NCBI GenBank assembly: GCA_049796395.1
Contig: JBARER010000351.1
Location: 898 to 64,897 of the forward strand
Length of the DNA: 64,000 nucleotides
Source: Xanthobacteraceae bacterium
GTDB taxonomy: Bacteria > Pseudomonadota > Alphaproteobacteria > Rhizobiales > Xanthobacteraceae
Direction of reading: 5' to 3'
This document shows positions 35,272-49,467 of the stretch, one piece after another. Positions within the stretch are counted from its first letter, which is position 1, and every line of letters starts with the position of its first letter. The notes beneath the pieces are model-generated. The model saw only the letters and a list, made by a program, of their open reading frames with translations. It did no database searches and was not told where the DNA came from. Both the position numbers and the translations under genes were made by a program.

Positions 35272-35482
35272 CTTCCGAAACTGATGGGCGTTGATTCGGC
35301 GACAACAATCGAAAGGCCGCCGGTGCCTCGTCCTGGCTTCGTTGCCCCGGGTGGCGCGGCGACCGCTGCCTGCAAACCAGGATAAAGATCGGGCGGTTCG
35401 CCGAACCGCCGAGTTAGAACAAAATTTACCATACCGGAGGACGATCCCGGCCGACCTGATTGGACAGGCCGGGACCTCCCTC

Positions 35483-36649
35483 ATGCCGACATTTGCGCCG
35501 ACTACCGCTGCCGAAAAAGCCATCGCTCTGGGCGATCCGGTCCCATGGTTCGGCGCGCCGCTCGTCGGCGACGGCGCCTTTAATCTTTCAGTCGCAGCCG
35601 GCCGCTGGATCGTGCTGAGTTTTCTCGGCTCGCCGGAAAACCCGCGAGTTGAGCGCGAACTGACCCAGCTTCTCGCCGACATGCAAATTTTCGACGAGGA
35701 CAAGGTCATATTCTGCGGCCTCTTTACCGCGCCGCCCGCCGATGCGACGCCCTATATCGCGATGAGCGGCCCGGCGATTTCGTTTCTTGCCGATTATGAC
35801 GGCGCCATCAGTCGTCAGTTCGGCGCAGCGACGATGCCGCGCACGATCGTGCTGGACCCGATGTTGCGCGCGGTCGCCGACATTGCATGGGATCACCCCG
35901 GCGGCCATGCAGCGACCGTGCGCGCAGTTTTACAGGGCCTACCCACCATCGACGATTCCGCCGGCGTGCCGCTCACGGCGCCGGCGCTGATCGTGCCGCG
36001 GGTCTTCGACTTCGAACTCTGCGATTTTCTTATCAAGGTCTATGACAAGCTTGGCGGCAAAGACTCGGGCTTTCTGTTGGACAATAACGGCACCACGTCC
36101 ACCATGATCGACTACCGGCTGAAGCGGCGCAATGACCTCAGCATCCTGGTGCCCGAAGTGCGCGACCAGATCCGAGGTCAAATCGTGCGGCGTCTGGTTC
36201 CGGCAATCGACCGGTTCTTCCAATTTTCGCCGACGCGGATGGATCGCTATATCGTGGCCTCTTACGACAGTGCCATTGGCGGGCATTTCCATCGCCACCG
36301 CGACAACATCAATATCGGCGCGCAGCATCGCCGCTTTGCCGTCACCATCAATCTCAACAAGGACTATGACGGCTGCGATCTCGTGTTTCCCGAATTCGGC
36401 CGGCGCACTTATCGCGCACCGGCGGGCGGGGCGATTGTGTTCTCCTGCGGGGCGCTGCATCAGGTGACGCCGGTGACGCGCGGCACACGCTATGCCTTCC
36501 TTGCCTTTCTTTACGGGGAAGCCGATGCGGCCCTGCGCGAGAAAAACGATTCGAAAATCGTGCAAAGCGAATTCCGCTACAGCGGGGCCATGTCTGACCG
36601 GCTGTTTCCGGAGCATGCGGCGGCCCCGCTCGAGCGCCGCGCCGGCTGA
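35483..36649 (+). CDS. fusion protein: Cys-less redoxin (AhpC/TSA)-like N-domain plus 2OG-Fe(II) oxygenase (PKHD/prolyl-hydroxylase-type) C-domain
   Basis: The C-domain has HxD (HRHRD), a distal His (ALHQV) and RGTRYAF. The N-domain follows peroxiredoxin motif spacing (RWIVLSFLGSPENPRVEREL ... ISFLADYDGAISRQFG ... PRTIVLDP) but has no Cys at the peroxidatic position. ATG at 35483. Confidence 0.7.
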   Translation: MPTFAPTTAAEKAIALGDPVPWFGAPLVGDGAFNLSVAAGRWIVLSFLGSPENPRVERELTQLLADMQIFDEDKVIFCGLFTAPPADATPYIAMSGPAISFLADYDGAISRQFGAATMPRTIVLDPMLRAVADIAWDHPGGHAATVRAVLQGLPTIDDSAGVPLTAPALIVPRVFDFELCDFLIKVYDKLGGKDSGFLLDNNGTTSTMIDYRLKRRNDLSILVPEVRDQIRGQIVRRLVPAIDRFFQFSPTRMDRYIVASYDSAIGGHFHRHRDNINIGAQHRRFAVTINLNKDYDGCDLVFPEFGRRTYRAPAGGAIVFSCGALHQVTPVTRGTRYAFLAFLYGEADAALREKNDSKIVQSEFRYSGAMSDRLFPEHAAAPLERRAG

Positions 36650-36894: not shown

Positions 36895-37269
36895 ATGGGC
36901 TTTTTGATTGTTTTTCTCGGCGGCGGCCTCGGTGCCGCACTCCGGCACGGCGTCAACCTTGCGGCCGCCCGCGTCGTCGGCGGAGGATTTCCCTTCGGCA
37001 CGATGGCGATTAACGTGCTCGGCTCTTTTTTGATGGGCTTGCTTGTCGAATATTTCGCGCTGCGCCGCGGTCTGCCGCAACACTGGCGGCTGTTTCTAAC
37101 GACGGGCATGCTCGGTGGCTTCACCACCTTCTCGGCATTCTCGCTGGAGGCGGCGCTCCTCTACGAGCGCGGTGCGATCGCCAGCGCGGCGGCCTATGTC
37201 GGCGGTTCAGTCGTTCTAGCGATCGCTGCGCTCTTTGCCGGGCTGGCGATTGTCCGTATGCTCGGCTGA
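36895..37269 (+). CDS. crcB: fluoride efflux channel CrcB/FluC
   Basis: 124 aa, 4 TM, with GGGLGAALR, GT..IN..GSF..G and GG.TTFS.F motifs. Confidence 0.92.
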   Translation: MGFLIVFLGGGLGAALRHGVNLAAARVVGGGFPFGTMAINVLGSFLMGLLVEYFALRRGLPQHWRLFLTTGMLGGFTTFSAFSLEAALLYERGAIASAAAYVGGSVVLAIAALFAGLAIVRMLG

Positions 37270-37296: not shown

Positions 37297-38106
37297 ATGG
37301 ACCTGGGGATGACCGGCAAGACAGCACTCGTCACCGGCGCAAGCGAAGGCATCGGCAAAGCGATTGCGCGCGCTTTGGCCCATGAAGGCGTCGATGTCGC
37401 GGTTTGCGCCCGCCGTAAAGGCCCGCTGGAAGAAACCGCCGCCGAGATCGCCAAGGAGTCCGGCCGCAAGATCGTGGCCATTCCGGCCGATCTCACCAAG
37501 CCGGACGACGCGGCGAATTTCGTCCAGCAGGCGCACGCCGCCTTGGGCCGGATCGATATCCTGGTCAACAATGCCGGTTCGTCACCGGGCGGTGTGCTCG
37601 ATCACTTGAGCGAGGCGGATTGGGCGCAGTCGTTGCAGCTCAAATTCATGGGCTATGTGCGCTGCATGAAGCATGTGCTGCCGATCATGCAGAAGCAGAA
37701 GAAGGGCCGCGTGGTCAACCTGATCGGCAACGACGGCGTCAAGGTCTCCTATTGGGAGATTGCGCCGGGCGCCGCCAATGCCGCAGGGCAGAACTTGACC
37801 AAATCGCTGGCCAGCCAATACGGCAAGGACAATATCAGCTTCGTCGTGGTCAATCCCGGGCCGGTGCGCACCGAACGCTGGGCCGGGTTGGTCAAGGCGA
37901 TGGCGCGTGACATGAAGCTTTCGTACGAGGAAGCTGACAAGCTGGCGCCGGCCTCTATTCCGCTCGGCCGCATCGCCGAATGCGAGGAGGTCGCCAATCT
38001 GGTCACCTTTCTCGCATCCGACCTCGCCTTCTTCGTCAACGGCACCATGGTCGAGATCGACGGCGGCCAAGACAAGGTGCTGATGGACCGCATGCGCGAT
38101 CGCTGA
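37297..38106 (+). CDS. SDR-family oxidoreductase
   Basis: TGASEGIGKAIA cofactor motif, NNAG, and classical SDR length (269 aa). SD AGGGGAG upstream of the ATG at 37297. Confidence 0.88.
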   Translation: MDLGMTGKTALVTGASEGIGKAIARALAHEGVDVAVCARRKGPLEETAAEIAKESGRKIVAIPADLTKPDDAANFVQQAHAALGRIDILVNNAGSSPGGVLDHLSEADWAQSLQLKFMGYVRCMKHVLPIMQKQKKGRVVNLIGNDGVKVSYWEIAPGAANAAGQNLTKSLASQYGKDNISFVVVNPGPVRTERWAGLVKAMARDMKLSYEEADKLAPASIPLGRIAECEEVANLVTFLASDLAFFVNGTMVEIDGGQDKVLMDRMRDR

Positions 38107-38140
38107 TCGCCACCCTTTTCCTCCACGATCTCAAATAACG

Positions 38141-38190
38141 ACGGCCTCTTTTCCTTCTCCCCCTGCCCTTGTGGGAGAGGAATGCCGCCC
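38141..38190. repeat. REP-like GC-rich palindromic intergenic element
   Basis: TTCCTTCTCCCcctgcccttgtGGGAGAGGAA is an imperfect hairpin of the CTCCCC...TGTGGGAGAGG type common in intergenic regions of related genomes. It lies just after the SDR stop. Confidence 0.4.
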
Positions 38191-38243
38191 CGCGTTTCGC
38201 CGCACTGTCGTTTATTGAGAGGCCGCTATTTCTTTGCAGCCGA

Positions 38244-38273
38244 TGATCCAGCCGCAGAAGCCAAACGTAGCAT
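38244..38273 (+). promoter_or_regulatory. candidate RpoE(ChrR)-type ECF promoter upstream of the DUF2177 gene
   Basis: TGATCC (38244-38249), then 18 nt, then TAGCAT. The architecture is the same as the two motifs in the rpoE divergent region. The -10-like element is 33 nt upstream of the ATG at 38306. Confidence 0.5.
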
Positions 38274-38305
38274 TTGGCCATTGCGCAGCAGGATTGAGGC
38301 CGCTC

Positions 38306-38707
38306 ATGACCTATTTTGCCGCTTATATTTCGATTCTTGTCGTGTTCGGAGCCATCGATGCGGGATGGCTGCGGATCATGGGCCACATCCTATATCGCCC
38401 GGTACTGGGTGATATCCTGCTGCCGGATCTCCGGCTGGCGCCGGCAATCGCGTTCTATCTGCTCTACCCCATCGGCATATTGGTGTTCTCGGTCATTCCC
38501 GCATTGCGCTCCGGATCGGCTTTCAACGCATTTTTGTACGCGGTTTTATTTGGAGCGCTCGCTTACGCTACCTATGATCTGACCAATTACGCGACTTTGC
38601 GAAACTGGACATTACAGATCACCATCATCGACATCTGCTACGGCGCGCTGGCCGCTGGCATCGCAGCGGCGGCGGCCTATCTTGTGGCCCACGCCTTTTC
38701 GCCCTGA
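38306..38707 (+). CDS. DUF2177-family integral membrane protein
   Basis: About 133 aa, 4 TM (MTYFAAYISILVVFGAIDAGWL...YATYDLTNYATLRNW). ATG at 38306 lies downstream of the promoter-like motif. The ORF-track start at 38234 lies upstream of the motif. Confidence 0.7.
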   Translation: MTYFAAYISILVVFGAIDAGWLRIMGHILYRPVLGDILLPDLRLAPAIAFYLLYPIGILVFSVIPALRSGSAFNAFLYAVLFGALAYATYDLTNYATLRNWTLQITIIDICYGALAAGIAAAAAYLVAHAFSP

Positions 38708-39744
38708 TTAGTGCCGCGGCCAAACGGTGTAAGGCGATAATGGCTCACGCCCCATTCCTCGCCACCGGCGTGACCGAACAATCCCATCGTCGCGAGAAAG
38801 AATAGCCGCCAGCGTCGGCGCCAGAGCCCGCCATCGCGGCCATAGACGCGTTTGAGAACCGCCTTCACTTCATCGGTATGATTGTCGAAGTTTTTCAGCC
38901 AATCTTCGGCGGTGCGGCGGTAATGCTCGCCATTCCATTGCCATTCCGCGTCGACCGTGAAGCAATCCGGAAATTGCCGGATCAATCCGTGGCTCGGCAT
39001 GATGCCGCCGGTAAAATAATGCTGCGCGATCCAGTCTTCCTTGTCTTCCGGGCGGAAGCGATACGATGCGTGCGCATTGCTGAAGACGTGAACGAACATA
39101 CGCCCATCGTGTTCCAGGCAATCGCGCATGCGTTGCAGAAGCGGCCGCCAATTGGACATATGCTCGAACATCTCGATCGAAACGACACGATCGAACTGGC
39201 CGGTGGGTAAAAACTCGTTCATGTCGGCGGTGATGACGTCGAGATTGGACAGTCCCCGCGAGTGCGCCACACACGCGATATAGTCGTGCTGCGACCGCGA
39301 ATTCGACACGGCGGTAATCTGAGCCGCCGGATAATGCTCCGCCATCCATAAAGACAAAGCACCCCAGCCGCAGCCGAGTTCAAGAATCCGTTGGCCGTCC
39401 GCGAGCGCGGCATGCGCCGCGGTCAGCTGCAAGGCCCGCTCTTCCGCCGCCGCCAGCGTGGCGATCCCCTCGTCGTAGTAGCAGCACGAGTATTTGCGCC
39501 GCGGTCCCAAGATCAGGGCGAAGAACTGCTCCGGTACCTCATAGTGCTGGGCGTTGGCTGCGGCGACATGGGTGGCGATAGGATAGGACGCCATGTCGGC
39601 GGCAAAACGCCGATCGGCGGAAGCCTCTTCGCCGCGAAGCCGCCCGCTCGTGCGCCCGACAAGCCAGTCGATCGTGGCCTGCGTCACTGTATCCGGCCAA
39701 GGCACGCGCTCGCCGACGCCAATCATCGATTGCAGAAATGTCAT
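38677..39744 (-). CDS. cyclopropane-fatty-acyl-phospholipid-synthase-family SAM-dependent methyltransferase (short paralogue)
   Basis: SAM motif ILELGCGWGALSLWMAE and CFA-synthase-family C-terminal region (SIEMFEHM...). ATG at 39744 overlaps the stop of the DUF1295 gene (ATGA). The 3' end overlaps the DUF2177 gene by 31 nt. Confidence 0.85.
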   Translation of the reverse strand: MTFLQSMIGVGERVPWPDTVTQATIDWLVGRTSGRLRGEEASADRRFAADMASYPIATHVAAANAQHYEVPEQFFALILGPRRKYSCCYYDEGIATLAAAEERALQLTAAHAALADGQRILELGCGWGALSLWMAEHYPAAQITAVSNSRSQHDYIACVAHSRGLSNLDVITADMNEFLPTGQFDRVVSIEMFEHMSNWRPLLQRMRDCLEHDGRMFVHVFSNAHASYRFRPEDKEDWIAQHYFTGGIMPSHGLIRQFPDCFTVDAEWQWNGEHYRRTAEDWLKNFDNHTDEVKAVLKRVYGRDGGLWRRRWRLFFLATMGLFGHAGGEEWGVSHYRLTPFGRGTNQGEKAWATR

Positions 39745-40574
39745 CTCCGCTCTCCTACCTTGGTCAGGCGCGGCGGCGCCGGAAAAAACGCATTGGTGCG
39801 CGCCCGATAAGCGCGAAATGCGCCGGGCCGCCGTATCAGCATGTGCGCTTCGAGCGGCGGGATGCCGGAGACATGCACCAGCAGCCAGTACATGCAAAGT
39901 GGGCCTCCCAGCGCAACGAATCCCCACGGATAGCCGCCACCGGGAGCGATGGCCAACAGCGGATAAGCGAGCCAGCCGAACCATTCGAAGAAGTAATTCG
40001 GATGCCGCGACCATGACCACAGTCCAGCGTCGCAAACCCGATCGCGATTGTCCGGGTCGGCGCGAAAGCGCCGCAGCTCGAAATCGGCGAGGCCTTCGCC
40101 GCCGATGCCGATCATCAGAACGACGACGCCGAGGAAATCCTGAACGCCTAGGCCCGGCGATGGATTAAACGCAGCGAGTATCATCGCCAGCGCCAGCGGA
40201 ATGCTGACCAATGCCTGTTTCTGCAACAGCCAGAACATTTGCCGCGACGCATCGTCCCCCCAGTCGCGAATGAGCTTGGCGTAGCGCGGATCATCGGTAA
40301 TGCCGGCCGTGCGCAGCGCGATATGAACGCCAAGCCGCAGCGACCAGATCGCGATCAACGAAGCCACCAGCGCCTGACGCTCGGTTATGCCGCCGAATAG
40401 CAGCCAAGGGGTCAGCGCACCGCCACAGCCGACAACGCCGAGACCGAAAGTCCAGATCGTATCGACCCATCCGGAGTTTCGCGTGCTGCGCCAAACCAGC
40501 CAGGCTCCGAACATGATTACCGAAAGCGCCGCGCTGACGGCAACAAAGACGGTTCCGAATTGCTGCGCCGTCAT
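39741..40574 (-). CDS. DUF1295-family membrane protein (steroid-5-alpha-reductase/ICMT-like fold)
   Basis: 277 aa polytopic protein with the signature GLWSWSRHPNYFFEWFGW. There are 4-nt overlaps with both neighbours. Confidence 0.8.
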   Translation of the reverse strand: MTAQQFGTVFVAVSAALSVIMFGAWLVWRSTRNSGWVDTIWTFGLGVVGCGGALTPWLLFGGITERQALVASLIAIWSLRLGVHIALRTAGITDDPRYAKLIRDWGDDASRQMFWLLQKQALVSIPLALAMILAAFNPSPGLGVQDFLGVVVLMIGIGGEGLADFELRRFRADPDNRDRVCDAGLWSWSRHPNYFFEWFGWLAYPLLAIAPGGGYPWGFVALGGPLCMYWLLVHVSGIPPLEAHMLIRRPGAFRAYRARTNAFFPAPPRLTKVGERR

Positions 40575-41512
40575 GGCTTAGCGGCCGCAGGTTCGGCCCG
40601 GGTACGGAGCGTTCCGACCATGAACCGGTCGGCGTCGCGTAATGCCGGCGCAAGGAAGCGCAGCGGGTCGGCGAACGATCCAATGATGGTGAGGTGGCCG
40701 ACACGCGGATAGGTCGCGACCTCCGCTCGGTCCCCAGAGGTGCGCAGGCGCGCCGCCAAGCGCGTGGCATTGCCTGGGTCTACCACATTGTCGTTGGCGC
40801 CCGTCAGCAGCAATGCCGGCGGCGCTCCGGGCGAGACATAAGAGATCGGCTGGGTCGTCGGCCGATCGGCACCGCCGAATATCGTCTGCAGCGTCGGATC
40901 GCGCAACGGCAGGAAATCGTACGGCCCGGAAATCCCGACCAGACCGGCGAGATCGCGGTCCGGCGCGAGGCCGACCTCCCCCAGCCAGCGCGGGTCGAGC
41001 GCGAGCATCGCTGCGATATAAGCGCCCGCCGAATGCCCCATGACAAAAAGCTCGCTGGGATTGCCGCCATAACGTGCTGCGTTGTCGCGGGCCCAGCGCA
41101 CCGCATGTGCGCCGTCCTCGAGAAAGGCGGGATAGCGAACCTCGGGGTAGAGCCGGTAATCTGGGACGACGGTCAGATAACCGCGCCGCGCCAATGCGGT
41201 GCCGAGAAACGTGTAGAGCGCCTTATCGCCGGTCTGCCACGAGCCGCCATAAAAGAAGACGACGACAGGCGCGTCAGTGGCGCCGGCGGGCCGATAGACG
41301 TCGAGCGTTCGCCGGGGTCCGTCCCCGTAAGCGACCGAGCGCGTGATCTCAACACCGGAGGTGGAGACTAAAAAGTTCAAGACCGAGGCGGGAGAGCACC
41401 CGGTAAGAAGCAAGCTCGCCAACACGCCGGCGGCCCATGGCGGGCCACGCCGGCCGCCGCGCGGTTTGGCGCTCGAGGCGGCGCCGGCCCGACACTCGCA
41501 AGCGCGACTCAT
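40571..41512 (-). CDS. alpha/beta-hydrolase (esterase/lipase-type) lipoprotein
   Basis: Signal plus lipobox (LASLLLTGCSP), oxyanion-type FFYGGSW, and nucleophile elbow GHSAGA. It starts 9 nt downstream of the chrR stop. Confidence 0.85.
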   Translation of the reverse strand: MSRACECRAGAASSAKPRGGRRGPPWAAGVLASLLLTGCSPASVLNFLVSTSGVEITRSVAYGDGPRRTLDVYRPAGATDAPVVVFFYGGSWQTGDKALYTFLGTALARRGYLTVVPDYRLYPEVRYPAFLEDGAHAVRWARDNAARYGGNPSELFVMGHSAGAYIAAMLALDPRWLGEVGLAPDRDLAGLVGISGPYDFLPLRDPTLQTIFGGADRPTTQPISYVSPGAPPALLLTGANDNVVDPGNATRLAARLRTSGDRAEVATYPRVGHLTIIGSFADPLRFLAPALRDADRFMVGTLRTRAEPAAAKP

Positions 41513-41521
41513 CGCGGCCGC

Positions 41522-42166
41522 TCAGAGACGGATGAAGGGTTGCAGCAGCCGGCCGACCCAGCTCTGCAGCTCGATATTGCCCTGCAACGCCACCAGGCAG
41601 ACGCAAGCCGCGCCGTCCTCGACGACCGGATTATGCTCGACCTGCTCGTCGGCTTCGTCGAAATCGCCGGCGCCGAAGCGGCCAAAATCGTGTCGGAAGG
41701 CACCCTCGAACACGCAGGTCCATTCCGTTCCGCTATGCCGGTGGCGCGGCAAACGCGTTCCAGCCGCAGCCTTCAACATGAAAACGCGGACGCCATCGTC
41801 CGAGGCGACGTCGATCGAACGCCACTGCACATTACGGCCGATCCAGCGCCATGAACCCAAAGCGTAAGCCGCCAGCGGCGCCGGCAGCGCGCCGGCTTCC
41901 GCAGGTTGCGGATGTAGCGACACCGGGACACTTTGGCCGGCCGTGGTCAGTTGCGCCATGGCGCGCTCCAGCGCGCCGGCGGACATCTCCGCGCGCGCAG
42001 CCGTCTCGAGCAGGACGCCGCCGACATGTTCGAACGACAACATCGCCTCCCGGCAATGCGGGCACAGCGACAGGTGCGCGGCAACCACGACCGCACGCCC
42101 CTCATCGAGCGTGCCGGAGGCGAACGCCGCCAATGTCAGATCGCTTGGATGATGCGTGATGCTCAT
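41522..42166 (-). CDS. chrR: ChrR-family anti-sigma-E factor (ZAS N-domain plus cupin C-domain)
   Basis: Zinc anti-sigma motif H-x3-C-x2-C (HLSLCPHC) and C-terminal cupin metal ligands (RHRHSGTEWT...VEHNP). The start overlaps the sigma gene stop (ATGA). Confidence 0.9.
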   Translation of the reverse strand: MSITHHPSDLTLAAFASGTLDEGRAVVVAAHLSLCPHCREAMLSFEHVGGVLLETAARAEMSAGALERAMAQLTTAGQSVPVSLHPQPAEAGALPAPLAAYALGSWRWIGRNVQWRSIDVASDDGVRVFMLKAAAGTRLPRHRHSGTEWTCVFEGAFRHDFGRFGAGDFDEADEQVEHNPVVEDGAACVCLVALQGNIELQSWVGRLLQPFIRL

Positions 42167-42732
42167 GTCGGCTCACCCAGGAGATTGTTCAAACGCGTCA
42201 TCGCCAAACGCAGCCGCGACTTGACTGTGCCCAGCGGCAGATCGAGAAGCTTGGCAATGTCGCCGTGGGCGCGGCCCTCGAAGAAGGAAAGCTGGACCAC
42301 ACGGACTTGTTCCTCGGGCAGTTCGCGAAGTGCGTCGCGTAGCCGCTGATCGCGCTCCGCAACGTCGAGCGAAGCGTCGGGCCGCTCGGGCGCGTCGGCT
42401 TCGATAGCCTCATAAAGCGAAAACAGCTTTGCCCGCCGATCTCTCCGCAAGCGGTCCACCCGCAGGTTACGGGCGATCGTGTAGATCCAGGCCGCCGGGC
42501 TGGCGCGCGTCCGATCGAATTGCCCGGCCTTTCGCCACACCATCAGCATCGTATCCTGCGCAATGTCCTCGGCCACCTCAGCCGCAGCGCCGCGCCGCAT
42601 CAGCATAGCTTTGATGCGGCCGGCATAACATTCGAACAGCGCAGCGAAGGCCGCGCGGTCCCCTTCGGCCGCGATCGCGCCGATCCATCGAGCCGGATCG
42701 GAACCCAAAGCGCCATTACCTTCATCGTGCAT
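42163..42732 (-). CDS. rpoE: ECF RNA polymerase sigma factor, RpoE (ChrR-regulated) type
   Basis: From MHDEGNG... the protein parallels R. sphaeroides RpoE as I remember it (DRAAFAALF..., QDTMLMVWRKAGQFD..RASPAAWIYTIARN, LPLGTVKSRLRLA). The longer ORF-track N-terminus (to 42900) would run across its own promoter-like motif. Confidence 0.9.
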   Translation of the reverse strand: MHDEGNGALGSDPARWIGAIAAEGDRAAFAALFECYAGRIKAMLMRRGAAAEVAEDIAQDTMLMVWRKAGQFDRTRASPAAWIYTIARNLRVDRLRRDRRAKLFSLYEAIEADAPERPDASLDVAERDQRLRDALRELPEEQVRVVQLSFFEGRAHGDIAKLLDLPLGTVKSRLRLAMTRLNNLLGEPT

Positions 42733-42842
42733 GCGCGCTCCATGCCACAGCCAATCCTGCCGGACGTAAAGCGGCCTGCAGTCGGCCTGTACCGGCGGCA
42801 ACGCAGGCTGCCATTGCCTTGTAATCGCGACTTGCATGCCCG

Positions 42843-42872
42843 GGGATACGACCGGCGGCAGCATTTGGATCA
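42843..42872 (-). promoter_or_regulatory. candidate autoregulated RpoE-type promoter for rpoE-chrR-hydrolase-DUF1295-methylase
   Basis: The minus strand reads TGATCC (42872-42867), then 18 nt, then TATCCC. Confidence 0.5.
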
Positions 42873-42886
42873 GGCCGAATTGGCGG

Positions 42887-42916
42887 TGATCCAAGCCCAA
42901 AAATCAATCGTAACTT
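42887..42916 (+). promoter_or_regulatory. candidate RpoE-type promoter for the FAD-oxidoreductase/DUF1365/methylase operon
   Basis: TGATCC (42887-42892), then 18 nt, then TAACTT, 59 nt upstream of the ATG at 42975. It lies back-to-back with the minus-strand copy, inside the inverted repeat TTGGATCA-N14-TGATCCAA (42865-42894). Confidence 0.55.
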
Positions 42917-42974
42917 CCTCGCCATGCAAAAAGCGGCCGATTTGACGCGGCGGTCTTTCAGGTGAAACGGACGA

Positions 42975-44330
42975 ATGATGCAGCGCAACGCTGTCCGGAG
43001 AAAGAATATTGCGGTCATCGGCACCGGCATTTCCGGGATGGCGGCGGCGTGGCTCCTGAGCCACGCCCACGACGTCACCGTATACGAGAGCGATCGCCGT
43101 GTGGGCGGACATTCCAACACTGTTAACGTTGCAACGGCAAACGGACCGATTGCCGTCGATACGGGGTTTATCGTTTATAACGAACTGACCTATCCCAACC
43201 TGACCGCCTTATTCGATCACCTCGGCGTACCGACACAACTGTCCGACATGTCGCTCGCAGTCTCTCTAGCCGGTGGCGAGCTCGAATATTCCGGCAGCCT
43301 GTCCGGTCTGTTTGCCGACAAGCGCAATCTGCTGCGGCCGCGATTCTGGTCGATGCTGCGTGACCTGCAACGCTTCTATCGCGAGGCGCCTCGCGACCTG
43401 GCGATGCTCGAACAGACGCACATCACGCTCGGCGAGTATCTTGAGGCCGGCGCTTACGGCATAGCCTTTCGCGACGATCATCTGCTGCCGATGGCGGCCG
43501 CAATCTGGTCGGCGCCAGCAACCAAGATCCTTAGCTACCCCGCGGCGTCCTTCATCCGCTTTCAAGACAGCCACGGTCTGCTCAAGCTGAGCAATCGGCC
43601 GCCCTGGCGAACCGTTCTTGGCGGCAGCCGCGCCTATGTCGAGCGCCTGACGGAATCCTTCGCGGATCGCATCCGCCGTGCGACGGCCGTCACCGCCGCG
43701 CGCCGAAGCGACGGCAAAGTCAAAGTCCGCGACAGCTCCGGGGCAATCGAGACGTTCGATCACGCGATCATTGCCAGCCACGCCGATCAAGCCTTGGCGA
43801 TGCTGGACGATCCGACAGCTGAGGAAAAGCGGCTGCTTGGGGCCTTCCACTACTGCAGTAATGTCGCGGTGCTGCATTCCGATGCGACTTTGATGCCAAA
43901 ACGACGCGCGGTGTGGTCAAGCTGGAACTATATCGGCGGCCGCGACGATGGCGATCGATGCGCAACCGTCACCTACTGGATGAACTCCTTGCAGCGCATT
44001 CCGCGGGACACGCCCCTGTTCGTCACGCTCAATCCGCCGCGTGCGCCACGCGCGGAGCACTACCGTGAGACTTATCACCACCCACTATTCGATACCGCGG
44101 CGATTTCGGCGCAGCGGCAGCTATGGTCGCTGCAGGGGGTACGCAATACCTGGTTCTGCGGGGCCTATTTCGGCGCCGGCTTTCATGAAGACGGACTGCA
44201 GGCCGGACTTGCCGTCGCCGAAGCGATCGGCGGCTGCCGCCGGCCATGGACCGTGGCGAACGAATCTGGGCGCATTGCCATCGGCCCCCTGCCCGCGTCG
44301 CAATTGCCGCAAACGGAGCTCGCGGCATGA
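42975..44330 (+). CDS. NAD(P)/FAD-dependent oxidoreductase (amine-oxidase-like, COG2907 type; UfaD-like candidate)
   Basis: Dinucleotide-binding motif IAVIGTGISGMAAAWLL...VTVYE...RVGGH. 451 aa. Confidence 0.85.
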   Translation: MMQRNAVRRKNIAVIGTGISGMAAAWLLSHAHDVTVYESDRRVGGHSNTVNVATANGPIAVDTGFIVYNELTYPNLTALFDHLGVPTQLSDMSLAVSLAGGELEYSGSLSGLFADKRNLLRPRFWSMLRDLQRFYREAPRDLAMLEQTHITLGEYLEAGAYGIAFRDDHLLPMAAAIWSAPATKILSYPAASFIRFQDSHGLLKLSNRPPWRTVLGGSRAYVERLTESFADRIRRATAVTAARRSDGKVKVRDSSGAIETFDHAIIASHADQALAMLDDPTAEEKRLLGAFHYCSNVAVLHSDATLMPKRRAVWSSWNYIGGRDDGDRCATVTYWMNSLQRIPRDTPLFVTLNPPRAPRAEHYRETYHHPLFDTAAISAQRQLWSLQGVRNTWFCGAYFGAGFHEDGLQAGLAVAEAIGGCRRPWTVANESGRIAIGPLPASQLPQTELAA

Positions 44331-45118
44331 GCCATCTTCGCTCTACGTTATACGTTGGATCGGTGATCCACCGGCGGCTGAAGCCACACCCGCATCGCCT
44401 GCGTTACCGGGTATTTTGGCTGCTGCTCGACCTCGACGAAATCGATCGCTTGAGCAAAAGCCTGCGGCTGTTTTCGCATAACCGCTTCAATGCCGTCAGC
44501 TTCCATGACGCCGATCATGGCGACGAGAGCGGCCGCCCGTTGCGCGACCAGGTCGAGCAGCATCTTATCCAAGCCGGTATCGGCTGGAGCGGCGGTACCA
44601 TCCGGCTCCTCTGCATGCCGCGGATTTTCGGTTGCGGCTTCAACCCGCTGAGCGTCTACTTCTGCCATCACCGCGGCGGCGAGTTCGCAGCCGTGCTCTA
44701 CGAGGTCCACAATACATTCGGCGAACGCCACAGCTATCTGATACCCGCCGGGGAAAACCCGGGCACGGTCATCGAGCAGCAATGCCGGAAGGTATTTTAC
44801 GTCTCGCCGTTCATGGACATGGACCTGACATATGAGTTCCGCACCGCCGTCCCGGATGAGCGCGTGTCGGTGGCGATCAGAGCGGCGGCGGCGGACGGCG
44901 TAATGCTCGCTGCGGCACTATCGGGACGACGCCGGGACATTTCGGACTTAAACCTGCTGAGCCTCCTCATCACTCATCCGCTGCTGACGCTGAAGGTCAT
45001 AACCGCAATTCATTGGAATGCGTTGCGTATGCTGTTGAAAGGCTACCGACTGCGCCCCCGGCCAACTCCTCCGACGCTGCCGGTCACCAGCGTGCGCGTC
45101 GGAGGCCGATCGCCATGA
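44327..45118 (+). CDS. DUF1365-family protein (UfaO-like candidate)
   Basis: LYVGSVIHRRLKPHPHRLRYRVFWLLLDLDEID is the DUF1365 N-terminal signature. ATGA overlaps with both neighbours. Confidence 0.85.
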   Translation: MSHLRSTLYVGSVIHRRLKPHPHRLRYRVFWLLLDLDEIDRLSKSLRLFSHNRFNAVSFHDADHGDESGRPLRDQVEQHLIQAGIGWSGGTIRLLCMPRIFGCGFNPLSVYFCHHRGGEFAAVLYEVHNTFGERHSYLIPAGENPGTVIEQQCRKVFYVSPFMDMDLTYEFRTAVPDERVSVAIRAAAADGVMLAAALSGRRRDISDLNLLSLLITHPLLTLKVITAIHWNALRMLLKGYRLRPRPTPPTLPVTSVRVGGRSP

Positions 45119-46341
45119 GTTTTTCCAATCCATCCTATCCATCGCACGACGGCGCCGGACAAGCGCGGCAGCGGCCGAGCATGCTCGGCCGGCTGCTCGA
45201 CCGATCTCTGCCGCGCTTGCAAACCGGACGACTCGATATCGCCTTGCCGAACATGGACATTATCGCACGCCGCGGCGAGCGCCTCGGACCGGAAGCGACA
45301 ATGGCGATGCGGCGTTGGCGCGCGCTGTGGCGCTTATTGTCCGAGGGCGAGGACGGCTTCTGCAACGGCTATATCGACGGCGACTGGACAACGTCCGACC
45401 TGGTGAAGCTTCTCGACCTCGGCATGGACAACGAAACAGCCCTCGATCCGCATACCAGGAAATGGCTGCTCAGCTTCCTGCGTAACCGTATCGGCCACAC
45501 GCTTCGCGCCAATACGCGAAACGGCAGCCGGCGCAACATCGCCGCGCATTACGATCTCGGCAACGATTTCTTCCGGCCGTGGCTCGATGCCGGCATGAAT
45601 TACTCTGCGGCGCTCTATCTTGGCGACGAGGCGCTCGAGCGCGCGCAAGAGCAAAAACTCGATCGGATCGGAGAGCTTCTGCAACTGCGGGGCGGCGAGA
45701 CCATATTGGAGATCGGCTGCGGCTGGGGGGCGTTGGCCGAACGGCTGATCCGGCATCATGGTGCGTCGGTGCGCGGCATAACACTATCCACCGAGCAATT
45801 GCGCTATGCCACGACGCGCTTAACCGCCGAAATTCACGACGGCCGCGCCGAAATGCGGCTGCAGGACTATCGCGACGTCACCGACCGCTTCGATCGCATC
45901 GCTTCGATCGAAATGGTCGAGGCGGTCGGCGAGCGTTATTGGCCGGTTTATTTCGCAAAACTCCGCGCCTGCCTCGCCGCCGGTGGCGTTGCGCTCCTGC
46001 AAGCCATCACCATCGATGACGCACGTTTCGCGCAATACCGCAAGCGGCCCGATTTCATCCAGCGCCGCATTTTCCCCGGCGGCATGCTGCCGACGCGCGC
46101 AATCCTCGAGCGCGAAGCGGCCCGGGCCGGGCTGAAGCTCACGTATCACCAATCGTTCGGCGACAGCTACGAGCGGACCTTGCACGAATGGCGCCGCCGC
46201 TTCTTGCAGGCGCGGCCGAAGCTCGAAGCCTTGGGACTAGATGCACGTTTTCAGCGGTTGTGGGACTATTATCTGGCCTATTGCGAAGTCGGCTTTCGTC
46301 ACCGCGTCGTCGATGTCGGGTTCTTTCAGTTTCGCGGCTGA
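45115..46341 (+). CDS. cyclopropane-fatty-acyl-phospholipid-synthase-family SAM-dependent methyltransferase (long paralogue)
   Basis: SAM motif ILEIGCGWGALAERL plus SIEMVEAVGERYW. 408 aa. It is translationally coupled to the DUF1365 gene. Confidence 0.88.
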   Translation: MSFSNPSYPSHDGAGQARQRPSMLGRLLDRSLPRLQTGRLDIALPNMDIIARRGERLGPEATMAMRRWRALWRLLSEGEDGFCNGYIDGDWTTSDLVKLLDLGMDNETALDPHTRKWLLSFLRNRIGHTLRANTRNGSRRNIAAHYDLGNDFFRPWLDAGMNYSAALYLGDEALERAQEQKLDRIGELLQLRGGETILEIGCGWGALAERLIRHHGASVRGITLSTEQLRYATTRLTAEIHDGRAEMRLQDYRDVTDRFDRIASIEMVEAVGERYWPVYFAKLRACLAAGGVALLQAITIDDARFAQYRKRPDFIQRRIFPGGMLPTRAILEREAARAGLKLTYHQSFGDSYERTLHEWRRRFLQARPKLEALGLDARFQRLWDYYLAYCEVGFRHRVVDVGFFQFRG

Positions 46342-46499
46342 GTAGCGAAAACGCGCGCTGGTGACAAATCGTCTCCCGCCGGGGTATGTCCCTTGGCAAG
46401 TCCTGCGCCTTCATTATAGTCGACGCCGCAAGCGCGCGGGCAGCAAACAGGAAACTTGCGGCCGAAAGACGCGTTGGGGTCGAACAAAGGGATGGGACA

Positions 46500-47522
46500 A
46501 TGTCTGGACATACGAAAGCAGTCTGGGCCGGCAGAGGCCTGAGGCTTGCTGCGGCCGGGCTCGGTTTCTTCGCCCTGGCCATTCCGGCGAACGCCGCCGA
46601 CTTCATCTTGAAGTTTGGCACCGCGACAATGAACGAAACGCAGCATCAGTTCATCAAATTCTACAAGGAAGAAGTCGAGAAGGATTCCGGCGGCCGCATC
46701 GAGGTGCAGGTCTACCCTGCGAGTCAGTTGGGGCCGATCCCGTCCGAAATTCAGGGCGTCCAGCTCGGCACCGTGCAGGGCTATATCGGTCCCGTCGACT
46801 TCTTCGTCGGTGTCGATCCCCGTTTCGGCGTGTTCTCGGCGCCGATGCTGTTCAAGAGCAACGAGAACGCCATCGCTACAGTTCAAGACGCGGCGATCCA
46901 GAAGGCGATGTTCGACATGGCCGCGCCGAAGCGCATGGTCGGCATCGCCACTATGAATATTGGCGCGTCCGACTACGGCGCCAAAAAGGGCATCATGTGG
47001 CTGTCGGATTTCCAGGGCAAAAAACTGCGTATCAACGGCACCGAGCTCGAGCGCGAGAAGATGGCGAAGCTCGGCGCCACCGGCATCGGTATGCCGCTGT
47101 CGGACGTCGTGCCCGCGCTTGATCAAGGCACGATCGACGGCACTATTTCCGGCCTGTCGGTGTTCGTCGCCTTCAAGATGAACGATTTGCTCAAGGTAAT
47201 CACCGTCACCAACGACACCTACATCATCTCCCTCGCCGTGATCAGCAAACCCTGGTTTGACACCCTGCCACCGGATTTGCAGAAGATCGTGATCGACGAC
47301 GGCGCCAAGGTGCAAGCCAAGACGCAAGCGTGGAACGTCAACTTCACCAAAAACCTGGTCGACACCTGGACCAAGCTCGGCGGCACCGTGCATACGCTGC
47401 CGGCCGACGACCTCGCCAAGCTGAAGACGCTGCTCGATCCGGTCGCCGACCAGGCGACCAAGGATCAGCCCGCGGTGCATGACATGCTGCAAATGGTGCG
47501 CGCGGCCGTCGCCAGACACTGA
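46500..47522 (+). CDS. TRAP transporter substrate-binding protein (DctP family)
   Basis: Signal peptide ending ANA-ADF, then a DctP-family pattern (LKFGTAT..., QLGPIPSEIQGVQLGTV). ATG at 46500 with an AAAGGGA SD-like sequence. Confidence 0.88.
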   Translation: MSGHTKAVWAGRGLRLAAAGLGFFALAIPANAADFILKFGTATMNETQHQFIKFYKEEVEKDSGGRIEVQVYPASQLGPIPSEIQGVQLGTVQGYIGPVDFFVGVDPRFGVFSAPMLFKSNENAIATVQDAAIQKAMFDMAAPKRMVGIATMNIGASDYGAKKGIMWLSDFQGKKLRINGTELEREKMAKLGATGIGMPLSDVVPALDQGTIDGTISGLSVFVAFKMNDLLKVITVTNDTYIISLAVISKPWFDTLPPDLQKIVIDDGAKVQAKTQAWNVNFTKNLVDTWTKLGGTVHTLPADDLAKLKTLLDPVADQATKDQPAVHDMLQMVRAAVARH

Positions 47523-47535
47523 AGCTTCTTCCGTT

Positions 47536-47650
47536 TCCCGGACGCGATGCACACGAAAGCCGTGCACCGCCGATCCGGGATCGTCACAGACTGAGTTTCC
47601 AACGATCCCGGCTCTGCGGCGCAGCACTTTGTGCCGCGTCGCGCCCGGGA
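47536..47650. repeat. cluster of three GC-rich stem-loops (REP-like) between dctP and dctQ
   Basis: The middle hairpin is a perfect 10-bp stem, CCGGGATCGT...ACGATCCCGG (47575-47584 / 47601-47610). It is flanked by imperfect hairpins TCCCGGACGCGATGCAC...GTGCACCGCCGATCCGGGA and CGGCGCAGCAC-tttg-TGCCGCGTCG. The latter resembles a repeat family I recognise from Rhodopseudomonas/Bradyrhizobium intergenic DNA. Confidence 0.5.
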
Positions 47651-47672
47651 AGCAGAATCGGCGGGCAAGCTG

Positions 47673-48188
47673 ATGACCGATATCCTCAGGCGCGTCGCGA
47701 ACGCGCTCGTTGCCGTGCTTCGCGTTGCCGCCGGCACCATGCTGATGCTGAGCGTCGGCATCAACTTCGCCAACATCATCGGCCGCTATGTGTTCTCGGT
47801 TTCGTTGTATTGGGCCGAGGAGGCGATGCTGTTCTTGATGATCGGCTGCGTCTTCCTCGGCGCCAGCCAAGCCGGCTGGCTCGGCCGCCATATCCGCATG
47901 GACGTTGTCATCTCGCTCCTGCCGCCACGCGCGCGCAAGGTTTTCGATGTGCTCGCCGATCTCATCACCATCGCCACCTGCATCGCGGTCGCAGTGTTCG
48001 CCTGGCCGGTCATGACCATGTTCTACGAGCTCGATCAGCGCAGCGAGACCGCGAACATCCCCCTTGTCATTCCCCAGTCCGCCGTGCCGATCGGCGTGCT
48101 GCTGACGGCACTGCTGATCGCGGCGCGGCTCGTCACCGTCGGCTCCCGCCACGACGACATCGTCGCCAGCCGGGATCTCGAGCACTGA
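47673..48188 (+). CDS. TRAP transporter small permease (DctQ family)
   Basis: About 171 aa, 4 TM, placed between the DctP and DctM genes. ATG at 47673. Confidence 0.85.
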   Translation: MTDILRRVANALVAVLRVAAGTMLMLSVGINFANIIGRYVFSVSLYWAEEAMLFLMIGCVFLGASQAGWLGRHIRMDVVISLLPPRARKVFDVLADLITIATCIAVAVFAWPVMTMFYELDQRSETANIPLVIPQSAVPIGVLLTALLIAARLVTVGSRHDDIVASRDLEH

Positions 48189-48189
48189 A

Positions 48190-49467
48190 ATGTCGACCTT
48201 CGTCTATTTCATCCTGCCGCTGATTCTGCTGATGCTCGGCCTGCCGATCTTCGTCGTACTGCTGCTGACCTCATTCGCCGCGATCGTGTTCGTCGCCCAC
48301 GTGCCGACTGATGCCGTGCAGACCTATATGTTCGGCAGCCTCGACAATTTTCCGCTGTTGGCGGTGCCGTTCTTCGTGCTCGCCGGCGAAATCATGGGTA
48401 AGGGCGGCATCGCCGACCGCGTCGTCAACTGGGTGGTCTCGATCGTCGGCGGGGTGCGCGGTTCGCTGGCAGTGACTACCGTCGCCTCTTCCGAACTGTT
48501 CGGCGCGATGGCGCATACCTCGGTCGGCACCGTAGTCGCCATCGGCCGGCTGCTGTTCCCGTCCCTGACCAAGCACGGCTACAGCGAGCGTTTCGCCATC
48601 AGCCTGATCACCTCGTCGGGCGCGGTTGCGGTGATCATACCGCCGTCGATCGCGATGATCCTCTACGCCATGACCGCGGAAGTCTCAGCGATCAAGCTGT
48701 TCACCGCCGGCATTCTGCCCAGCCTTTTGATTGGCATCGTCGACGCCGTCTACGTCATGGTCTACGCCAAGGTCAAAATGGTGCCGCTGTCGGCGCCGGC
48801 GCGCTGGAAGAATATCTGGGCCTCGACCAAAGAAGCGAGTTGGGCGATCGGCACGCTGGCCGTGATTTTCGGCGGCATTTACGGCGGGGTCTTCACGCCG
48901 ACCGAGGCGGCCGGCGTCGCTGTCGTCTATTCGCTGTTCGTGGCAATGGTGGTCTACCGCACCATCGGCCTGACCGAGCTCTGGCAGATCATCGTCAGTT
49001 CTGTAGTGCTGATCGGCCAGATCCTGATCATCGTCACCTCGGCCGGGGTCTATTCCTGGCTAATGACCACGAGCGGCATTCCGCAACGCCTGATCCACGG
49101 CATCGAGGCGATGCACCTGCCGCATTGGCAGACGCTGCTCGCCGTCAACGCCGGCTTGCTCGTGGCCGGCAGCTTTCTCGAGCCGGCGCCGGCGATCCTG
49201 GTGCTGACGCCGCTCCTGCTGCCGATCGTGGAGGCGGCCGGCATCGATGCCATCCACTTCGGCATCATCATGGCCGTCAATCTGTCAATCGGCCTTTACA
49301 TGCCGCCGTTCGGGCTGAACCTGTTCGCCGCGCGCGCCGTCTTCAACGTGCCGATGGCCGTCATCTATCGCGGCGTGCTGCCGTTCGTGCTGCTCAATTT
49401 CCTGGCACTATTGGTCATCACCTACGTGCCGGCGATTTCGACCGTGCTGATCGGAGGCGGCCATTAG
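48190..49467 (+). CDS. TRAP transporter large permease (DctM family)
   Basis: 425 aa polytopic protein. It starts 1 nt after the dctQ stop and has DctM-type motifs (FPLLAVPFFVLAGEIMGKGG). Confidence 0.9.
   Translation: MSTFVYFILPLILLMLGLPIFVVLLLTSFAAIVFVAHVPTDAVQTYMFGSLDNFPLLAVPFFVLAGEIMGKGGIADRVVNWVVSIVGGVRGSLAVTTVASSELFGAMAHTSVGTVVAIGRLLFPSLTKHGYSERFAISLITSSGAVAVIIPPSIAMILYAMTAEVSAIKLFTAGILPSLLIGIVDAVYVMVYAKVKMVPLSAPARWKNIWASTKEASWAIGTLAVIFGGIYGGVFTPTEAAGVAVVYSLFVAMVVYRTIGLTELWQIIVSSVVLIGQILIIVTSAGVYSWLMTTSGIPQRLIHGIEAMHLPHWQTLLAVNAGLLVAGSFLEPAPAILVLTPLLLPIVEAAGIDAIHFGIIMAVNLSIGLYMPPFGLNLFAARAVFNVPMAVIYRGVLPFVLLNFLALLVITYVPAISTVLIGGGH

Follow-up and report, generated by a model that had tools for sequence, protein, structure and literature searches.

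Which genes does a photo-oxidative stress switch govern when it stands between two sets of membrane-lipid enzymes, and what do the conserved proteins encoded beside them contribute? The question is raised by a ten-gene region of a Xanthobacteraceae bacterium (NCBI GenBank assembly GCA_049796395.1), at positions 37,297 to 46,341 of a 64,000-nucleotide stretch of contig JBARER010000351.1 (forward-strand positions 898 to 64,897); we call this whole stretch the window. A sigma factor of the extracytoplasmic function (ECF) type, RpoE or sigma-E, and its anti-sigma factor ChrR are encoded there between two divergent arms. We give a probability of about 0.72 to the reading that the locus is an ECF11 RpoE/ChrR photo-oxidative stress module controlling the synthesis of furan fatty acids (FuFA), with three companions: a DUF1295 membrane protein, a DUF2177 protein and an alpha/beta hydrolase.

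A RpoE/ChrR pair at the head of a coupled gene run

Judged by sequence, the sigma/anti-sigma pair is a true ECF11-type RpoE/ChrR module. ChrR aligns over its full length with ChrR of Rhodobacter (Cereibacter) sphaeroides (2z2s_B; 43% identity, E-value 8e-37) and passes the model TIGR02451 with 202 bits against a cutoff of 124.5. Both zinc sites are intact, with eight of eight metal ligands conserved: H6, H31, C35 and C38 of the N-terminal site (R. sphaeroides numbering) are all identical in the 2z2s_B alignment, and the cupin ligands H142, H144, E148 and H178 are kept, aligning with the H-x-H-x3-E...H pattern of R. sphaeroides ChrR. For RpoE, the top match in the PDB is the R. sphaeroides protein (2q1z_A, 1.6e-36), followed by the next ECF sigma factor at 2e-19. 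The original prediction, made from the letters of the window, had named a ChrR-type anti-sigma factor and an ECF sigma factor here; the protein matches, the metal ligands and the TIGR02451 score uphold it. An ECF system of Bradyrhizobium inducible by reactive oxygen species belongs to other ECF groups (EcfQ, EcfF) and has no bearing on the locus.

A listing of open reading frames (ORFs) and Pfam scans of the window confirmed all ten genes that had been placed in the region beforehand (Table 1), and the overlaps and the 9-nt gap described between them were exact as placed. Five ATGA start/stop overlaps join neighbouring genes. In the chrR arm, the stop of rpoE meets the start of chrR in this way (42163-66), 9 nt (41513-41521) separate the chrR stop from the hydrolase start, and further overlaps join the hydrolase, DUF1295 and methylase genes (40571-74 and 39741-44); from rpoE to the methylase we saw no terminator-like site above background. 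In the other arm ufaO lies directly downstream of ufaD, again overlapping (44327-30), and the fifth overlap follows at 45115-18. The rpoE gene most likely starts at ATG 42732, and not at the first start codon of its long ORF.

Independent gene calls on L082, a near-identical public metagenome contig, give equal lengths throughout, including 189 aa for rpoE and 133 aa for DUF2177, except for the minus-arm methylase (345 aa, with an earlier stop) and ufaD (450 aa). In the window the convergent 3' ends of the methylase and DUF2177 genes overlap by 31 nt (38677-38707); in L082, where the methylase ends 10 codons sooner, the two genes abut without overlap. The ChrR of the window itself was found only on one 6.3-kb assembly of a public sequencing run. 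The closest genome (L002), a metagenome-assembled Xanthobacteraceae, carries the same ten genes in the same order, at 78-96% amino-acid identity.

Predicted sigma-E promoters and conservation of the island

The promoter consensus of ECF11 sigma factors, TGATCC-N16-CGTA, comes from two gammaproteobacterial studies, by chromatin immunoprecipitation sequencing (ChIP-seq) in Pseudomonas syringae (PMC5507510) and by transcript mapping in Shewanella (PMC4336711). Allowing a spacer of 15 to 18 nt, the window holds four matches, with 0.27 expected. Three of the four have the canonical 16-nt spacer and each of these stands in front of genes: the predicted rpoE and ufaD promoters are placed back to back, with 15 nt between their -35 boxes, and the third precedes the DUF2177 gene. 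One-mismatch matches are not clearly enriched in the window (9 against 3.0 expected, a count that 1 of 100 shuffles also reached). The fourth exact site, at 33454-33478 on the minus strand, has a 15-nt spacer and lies antisense within a TonB-dependent receptor gene, and no target gene follows it. Only the near-identical L082 has this site too; it is probably a chance match, although an antisense transcript may start from it.

How far this arrangement extends was surveyed with one genome per species: a scan with a ChrR alignment yielded 80 loci, which we searched by tblastn with the ten window proteins. These loci are phylogenetically clustered and were chosen by ChrR N-terminal peptides, and counts over them are not independent events; co-occurrence was counted in the 57 loci with complete flanks. 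An exact copy of the motif precedes rpoE in 67 of 79 related loci and ufaD in 51 of 71; in front of the DUF2177 orthologue it stands in 33 of 48, which belong to several families and include Gemmobacter. About 8 matches would be expected by chance in the whole 1.4 Mb of loci, as estimated from the motif length on both strands, and DUF2177 is therefore a predicted direct sigma-E target in several families. An earlier suggestion that DUF2177 shares the transcription unit of the sigma/anti-sigma genes does not hold, as the gene has its own predicted promoter and is convergent with the minus arm.

Divergent from rpoE-chrR, ufaD and ufaO are present in almost all loci, including those of Cereibacter. 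The arrangement chrR-(hydrolase)-DUF1295-methylase with a convergent DUF2177 gene is found in about 30 loci, in Xanthobacteraceae, Hyphomicrobium, Bauldia, Rhizobium, Ancylobacter/Starkeya, Geminicoccaceae and Rhodospirillales; Phyllobacterium and Novosphingobium have it without the methylase. Occurrence is nested. DUF2177 is encoded in 36 of the 57 complete loci, eight of which lack DUF1295; DUF1295 in 28, every time with DUF2177; and the minus-arm methylase in 24, every time with DUF1295. The hydrolase gene is an optional member of the island: 19 loci have it, 18 of them with DUF1295, and 10 of the 28 loci with DUF1295 do without it. The expected conservation of these neighbours with chrR was accordingly found for DUF1295 and DUF2177, and less strictly for the hydrolase. 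A search for more conserved island genes returned Rhodobacterales-specific synteny alone.

Such a neighbourhood might simply be inherited synteny, devoid of shared regulation or function, the functional unit being confined to rpoE-chrR and ufaD-ufaO-ufaM. A single order does supply most full-layout loci, with many related metagenome-assembled genomes among them, and the hydrolase is dispensable. However, Novosphingobium, Geminicoccaceae and Rhodospirillales have the layout too, 4-nt overlaps run from rpoE to the methylase without a terminator-like site above background, and DUF2177 has kept an exact motif of its own across several families. We regard this explanation as very improbable.

The plus arm: candidate genes for monomethylated FuFA

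The products of ufaD and ufaO in the window are, by sequence, orthologues of those of a Cereibacter RSP1091/1090 operon: UfaD is 47% identical over 416 aa to the RSP1091 orthologue of Cereibacter johrii, and UfaO, a DUF1365 protein, is 34% identical to the RSP1090 orthologue. The third gene is a ufaM candidate, from its two-domain cyclopropane fatty acid (CFA) synthase type and its position after ufaD-ufaO; the top PDB match of its product is E. coli CFA synthase (6bqc, 1.3e-48, residues 67-400). The order ufaD-ufaO-ufaM is that of RPA2571, RPA2570 and RPA2569 of Rhodopseudomonas palustris, which bear these names and suffice for the synthesis of 9M5-FuFA (Lemke et al. 2020, PMC7380195). Both identities and this gene order agree with the original prediction, which had read the divergent FAD-oxidoreductase, DUF1365 and methylase genes as the Ufa pathway. 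NCBIfam holds no models for UfaD, UfaO, UfaM, FufM, DUF1295 or DUF2177.

The make-up given there for RSP1087-1091 was right for UfaO and UfaD, and wrong for RSP1089. Divergent from rpoE, C. johrii has an operon whose genes measure 430, 276, 401, 186 and 245 aa; the last three match the published lengths of RSP1089, RSP1088 and RSP1087, which are 402, 186 and 245 aa. The RSP1089 orthologue is an MFS_2 transporter, not a CFA-synthase-like protein, and the RSP1088 orthologue is a DUF3833 lipoprotein.

The minus arm: a FufM-type methylase

The second methylase, last gene of the rpoE operon, is only 28% identical to the first. Its top PDB match is coclaurine N-methyltransferase (6gkv, 1.6e-59), with CFA synthases following at 5e-23, which places it in the coclaurine-N-methyltransferase/LIME1-like branch of the CMAS family. 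FufM (RPA0924) of R. palustris belongs to the same branch: it is 26% identical to UfaM, converts 9M5-FuFA to 9D5-FuFA (PMC7380195) and is reported to be 38% identical to Arabidopsis LIME1 (PMC10940516).

The deletion primers published for R. palustris (supplement of Lemke et al. 2020, PMC7380195) allowed a closer comparison, limited to 18 nt of RPA0924. They place the end of RPA0923 in an ATGA overlap with the start of RPA0924, a junction that parallels the one between the DUF1295 and methylase genes of the window. D-E-W-G-V-S is encoded by a primer that lies about 1030 nt beyond RPA0923; with at most three mismatches, this primer also fits the methylase orthologues of 16 loci, at a conserved C-terminal motif, G-[ED]-E-W-G-V-S-H-Y, which reads G-E-E-W-G-V-S-H-Y in the window. 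On these sequence grounds we have moderate confidence that the minus-arm methylase is a FufM orthologue, and RPA0923 is probably a DUF1295 gene. The naming of the two methylases as UfaM and FufM candidates is thereby supported for the plus arm by type and position, and for the minus arm by its coclaurine-like subfamily. R. palustris has no locus among the 80 surveyed and its name does not appear among the 120 methylase homologues listed; in metagenomes, the 24-nt RPA0923/0924 junction rebuilt from the deletion primers had no match, and the 18-nt primer sequence gave 32 chance matches, none of them in a methylase.

A different assignment, which we consider unlikely, would leave FuFA to the plus arm and give the minus-arm methylase, which would not be FufM, a separate pathway with DUF1295, for reducing and methylating another membrane lipid. 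The closest solved relatives of this methylase are indeed plant alkaloid N-methyltransferases and not lipid methylases; yet FufM itself, through its identity with LIME1, falls in that same coclaurine-like branch, and the R. palustris primers place the C-terminal motif of the family in RPA0924, behind an ATGA-overlapping upstream gene. The strict co-occurrence of the methylase with DUF1295 would also suit a pathway of their own, as would an assembly (L020) in which the two are encoded by one in-frame ORF; that contig, however, carries other frameshifts.

This L020 ORF, at 11594-13447, has no stop between the DUF1295 and FufM-type methylase parts. We do not count it as evidence of a fusion: the contig has other broken or frameshifted genes, and the ORF may be an assembly error. 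Two further candidate fusions were rejected: P0223 (518 aa) is a frameshifted read-through artefact, and in L025 a stop codon lies inside the tblastn match.

The companions: DUF1295, DUF2177 and an exported esterase

DUF1295 is predicted to adopt a steroid/sterol-reductase fold and is a candidate NADPH-dependent ene-reductase. In profile comparisons it matches steroid reductase (SRD5A) at 0.014 and isoprenylcysteine methyltransferase (ICMT) at 0.022. An AlphaFold model built on an alignment of 54 homologues reached a mean predicted local distance difference test (pLDDT) score of 88.7, against 48 for the single-sequence model. Its best fold match is delta14-sterol reductase (4quv_B; probability 1.00, template modelling (TM) score 0.54); TM scores are 0.45/0.50 against SRD5A2 (7bw1) and 0.36 against ICMT. 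In a HMMER alignment D164, R171, N193 and E197, which are invariant or nearly so in the family, coincide with NADPH-binding residues of SRD5A2. The cofactor residue N160 of SRD5A2 is replaced by E in DUF1295, and its R227, H231 and Y235, together with the catalytic E57 and Y91, fall outside the alignment. UsgR, a fungal membrane protein described as DUF1295-like, is a proven ene-reductase for an activated double bond (PMC8597850). In the fold search, chain 8xku_G of the Arabidopsis chloroplast Ycf2-FtsHi motor complex scored about as well as the reductases (TM 0.50, 18% identity); to go by the model, this chain may represent the DUF1295 family in plants.

Our literature search turned up no functional assignment for DUF2177 or for any bacterial DUF1295 protein. 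Genes of both families recur together in two other settings: during singlet-oxygen acclimation of Chlamydomonas they are induced with CFA1/CFA2 and a DUF1365 gene (PMC4067076), and in Firmicutes, Chloroflexi and Actinobacteria they lie, with the fatty-acid-binding protein DegV, next to heliorhodopsins.

The hydrolase is an exported esterase of the Abhydrolase_3/BD-FAE type, probably lipid-anchored. A signal peptide followed by a lipobox cysteine (L-T-G-C39 in the window, with the cysteine kept in most orthologues) points to export and probable lipid anchoring. Its triad of Ser161 (in GHSAG), Asp241 and His273 and the Y-G-G oxyanion motif are invariant in 22 orthologues. The best PDB matches are esterases (4zrs_A, 1.8e-27), with kynurenine formamidase (4e11) at 5e-14; against the NCBIfam equivalog models all scores stay far below the cutoffs, and no named enzyme fits. 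An esterase/lipase of P. syringae, PSPTO_4843, is likewise a sigma-E target.

Other esterase-like genes occur in the surveyed loci. In L016 (13067-14354, plus strand), which lacks a chrR-linked hydrolase, an unrelated alpha/beta hydrolase (Abhydrolase_1, 5e-29) starts about 300 nt downstream of a sigma-E-type motif divergent from DUF2177; the equivalent place in L065 is taken by a DUF2147 gene. L012 has a second copy of the esterase (3124-3876, plus strand; 59% identity) some 7 kb from chrR, and ufaD and ufaO are missing there from their usual place.

All three companions could belong to the sigma-E regulon and yet have nothing to do with FuFA, handling other singlet-oxygen damage: DUF1295 might reduce oxidised quinones, carotenoids or isoprenoids, and the hydrolase, in keeping with its kynurenine formamidase match, might cleave oxidised esters such as N-formylkynurenine. 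FuFA synthesis in R. sphaeroides, also by R. palustris genes placed there, needs only UfaM, UfaD, UfaO and FufM. That every DUF1295 locus has ufaD/ufaO on the opposite side of rpoE speaks for a link with the pathway all the same, as does the fact that the FufM-type methylase never occurs without DUF1295 (24 of 24) and overlaps it by ATGA. The wider distribution of the two DUF families can be taken either way: their clustering with heliorhodopsin and DegV, and the eight loci with DUF2177 beside chrR in which DUF1295 and the methylase are missing, favour a role apart from FuFA, and the co-induction in Chlamydomonas with DUF1365 and CFA genes favours a shared one. On balance we find a role unconnected with FuFA doubtful.

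Proposed pathway

Under the FuFA reading, the N-terminal zinc-binding domain of ChrR would hold RpoE in the resting state. Singlet oxygen or an organic hydroperoxide would inactivate ChrR, as is established for the homologues of R. sphaeroides and Caulobacter. Free RpoE would then transcribe its own operon, rpoE-chrR-esterase-DUF1295-fufM-like, together with the divergent ufaD-ufaO-ufaM and the DUF2177 gene. By homology and synteny, UfaM would methylate cis-vaccenate on phospholipids, UfaD would desaturate the product, and UfaO would insert O2 and close the furan ring, giving 9M5-FuFA; the FufM-type methylase would probably add a second methyl group to give 9D5-FuFA.

From fold, context and chemistry, the membrane acyl chains handled by this pathway may also be the target of the companions, at a later point or in parallel. 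As a membrane ene-reductase, DUF1295 could reduce an activated C=C bond, the likeliest substrate being the dioxo-ene left after a furan has quenched singlet oxygen; DUF2177 could be its small membrane partner, and the exported esterase an optional remover of damaged acyl chains on the periplasmic side. A role of the companions in the repair of oxidised lipids would be plausible, with indirect support from the conserved promoters, the reductase fold and the singlet-oxygen response of these families in Chlamydomonas. More specifically, and as a tentative proposal that we hold to be rather unlikely in this full form, DUF1295 and DUF2177, with the esterase in some lineages, would make up a conserved branch that repairs membrane lipids and is switched on by light or singlet oxygen, in which DUF1295 saturates the dioxo-ene and the esterase excises the spent chain. 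Such a branch, if true, would explain both the co-induction with DUF1365 and CFA genes in Chlamydomonas and the clustering with heliorhodopsins in Gram-positives.

Several points weigh against the FuFA module with companions. The host, an uncultured Xanthobacteraceae, has been met only in metagenome assemblies; the assignments of UfaM and FufM draw on subfamily, synteny and one 18-nt primer; and the 80 loci are clustered and selected by ChrR peptides, with counts that are not independent. Sequence comparison by itself gives DUF1295 nearly the same score against SRD5A as against the methyltransferase ICMT, and the substrate proposed for it comes from chemical reasoning only. To obtain 9D5-FuFA, FufM is enough by itself, in R. 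sphaeroides as well as in vitro (PMC7380195), so DUF1295 is not needed for the second methylation; R. sphaeroides makes FuFA without a chrR-linked DUF1295, DUF2177 or esterase; and a deletion of RPA0923 was built, with no phenotype reported in the text (PMC7380195). The last three facts make a downstream or parallel role of the companions fit better than a biosynthetic one.

Table 1 Features of the locus and of its left flank, in window coordinates
Feature	Position	Strand	Evidence or remark
rpoE, ECF11-type sigma factor, 189 aa	42163-42732	-	Pfam Sigma70_r2 + r4_2
chrR, anti-sigma factor, 214 aa	41522-42166	-	Pfam zf-HC2 + Cupin_7 (3e-15); TIGR02451
Alpha/beta hydrolase	40571-41512	-	Pfam BD-FAE 2e-30, Abhydrolase_3 1e-24
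DUF1295 integral membrane protein	39741-40574	-	Pfam DUF1295 2e-59
CMAS-family methyltransferase, FufM-type, last gene of rpoE operon	38677-39744	-	Pfam CMAS 3e-42
ufaD, FAD amine-oxidase family, fatty-acyl desaturase candidate	42975-44330 (start may be ATG 42978)	+	Amino_oxidase + NAD_binding_8
ufaO, DUF1365, furan-ring-forming oxygenase candidate	44327-45118	+	Pfam DUF1365 2e-80
ufaM candidate, two-domain CFA-synthase-family methylase	45115-46341	+	Pfam CMAS 6e-79
DUF2177 gene	38234/38306-38707	+	Pfam DUF2177 2e-37; small membrane protein of 133 aa from ATG 38306
Predicted rpoE-operon promoter	42847..42872	-	Exact TGATCC-N16-CGTA, ~115 nt upstream of ATG 42732
Predicted ufaD-ufaO-ufaM promoter	42887..42912	+	Exact motif
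Predicted DUF2177 promoter	38244..38269	+	Exact TGATCC-N16-CGTA, 36 nt upstream of ATG 38306
Short-chain dehydrogenase/reductase (SDR)	37297-38106	+	Pfam adh_short 2e-51
crcB	36895-37269	+	After fluoride riboswitch
Fluoride riboswitch RF01734	36699-36761	+	57.8 bits, E-value 5e-14

Genes at the borders of the island

DUF2177 and the SDR had been described as flanking the island; both are adjacent to it, but together on one side. The SDR had further been taken for an island member and a counterpart of RSP1087, a view that the data contradict: it is 27% identical over 194 aa to the RSP1087 orthologue, its upstream region has no sigma-E motif, and it starts 27 nt after crcB, behind the fluoride riboswitch. 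Its linkage is not conserved either, as none but the closest relatives have it next to the island, and in L023 and L029 crcB adjoins the island without it. The SDR most likely belongs to a fluoride-controlled unit outside the island. It is an unusual passenger for a crcB unit and may be regulated by fluoride. As a whole, the core of the original prediction stands, and the identity of RSP1089 and the role of the SDR are its two errors.

Further upstream, a TonB-dependent receptor gene (32863-35271) is followed by an ORF of 452 aa (35291-36649, plus strand) with AhpC/TSA-like and 2-oxoglutarate (2OG)-Fe(II) oxygenase domains. It is intact in L020, L023 and L029 and divided into two genes in L082, probably by an assembly frameshift. 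On the other side, a tripartite ATP-independent periplasmic (TRAP) transporter directly follows the ufaM candidate (46386-49467, plus strand), with DctP at 46386-47522 and then DctQ and DctM according to the L082 calls. A sigma-70-like promoter match lies at 46393-46420, and this unit appears unrelated to the island.

Relation to known systems and significance

The sigma-E/ChrR system of R. sphaeroides has the same type of pair, zinc ligands and promoter motif as the window, and the same divergence of rpoE-chrR from ufaD-ufaO. There, ufaO is followed by the MFS transporter, the DUF3833 lipoprotein and an SDR, and ufaM (RSP2144) is unlinked; in the window ufaM comes directly after ufaO, the rpoE-chrR operon is extended by the esterase, DUF1295 and the FufM-type methylase, and a DUF2177 gene with its own sigma-E motif lies alongside. 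R. palustris CGA009 (PMC7380195) shares the order ufaD-ufaO-ufaM, the methylase subfamily with its ATGA-overlapping upstream gene, and the predicted products, 9M5- and 9D5-FuFA. Its two gene sets have distant locus numbers, whereas both flank rpoE-chrR in the window.

Outside the alphaproteobacteria, P. syringae (PSPTO_1043/1042) and Shewanella oneidensis (RpoE2/ChrR) use the same TGATCC-N16-CGTA motif, with amine oxidase, DUF1365 and cfa genes in their regulons; their lipid genes belong to a long phrB-containing operon away from rpoE-chrR, and the window has no linked photolyase gene. The SAK1-dependent genes of Chlamydomonas reinhardtii come from the same families as the island, but form a eukaryotic nuclear regulon under another regulator and without clustering. 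DUF1295, finally, shares its predicted fold with the steroid/sterol reductases MaSR1 and SRD5A2, and four cofactor residues with SRD5A2. Sequence identity is only 16-18%, and the DUF1295 substrate would be an acyl chain in place of a sterol or pyrone.

The switch and four of the enzymes have already been described, and what the locus chiefly adds is the occurrence of a known system in an uncultured soil lineage. Its layout is common in public genomes, and we found no published description of it. What is new are three conserved companions predicted to answer to one sigma factor, the DUF1295 and esterase genes as parts of the rpoE operon and the DUF2177 gene behind its own conserved promoter; the additional lipid branch that they may represent is a reasonable lead, not a finding. 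Cultured relatives with the same layout exist in Ancylobacter lacus, Phyllobacterium species, Rhizobium sp. BK251 and probably R. palustris. The companions offer a way into the fate of FuFA once they have scavenged singlet oxygen, and into a lipid signal that would feed back on ChrR.

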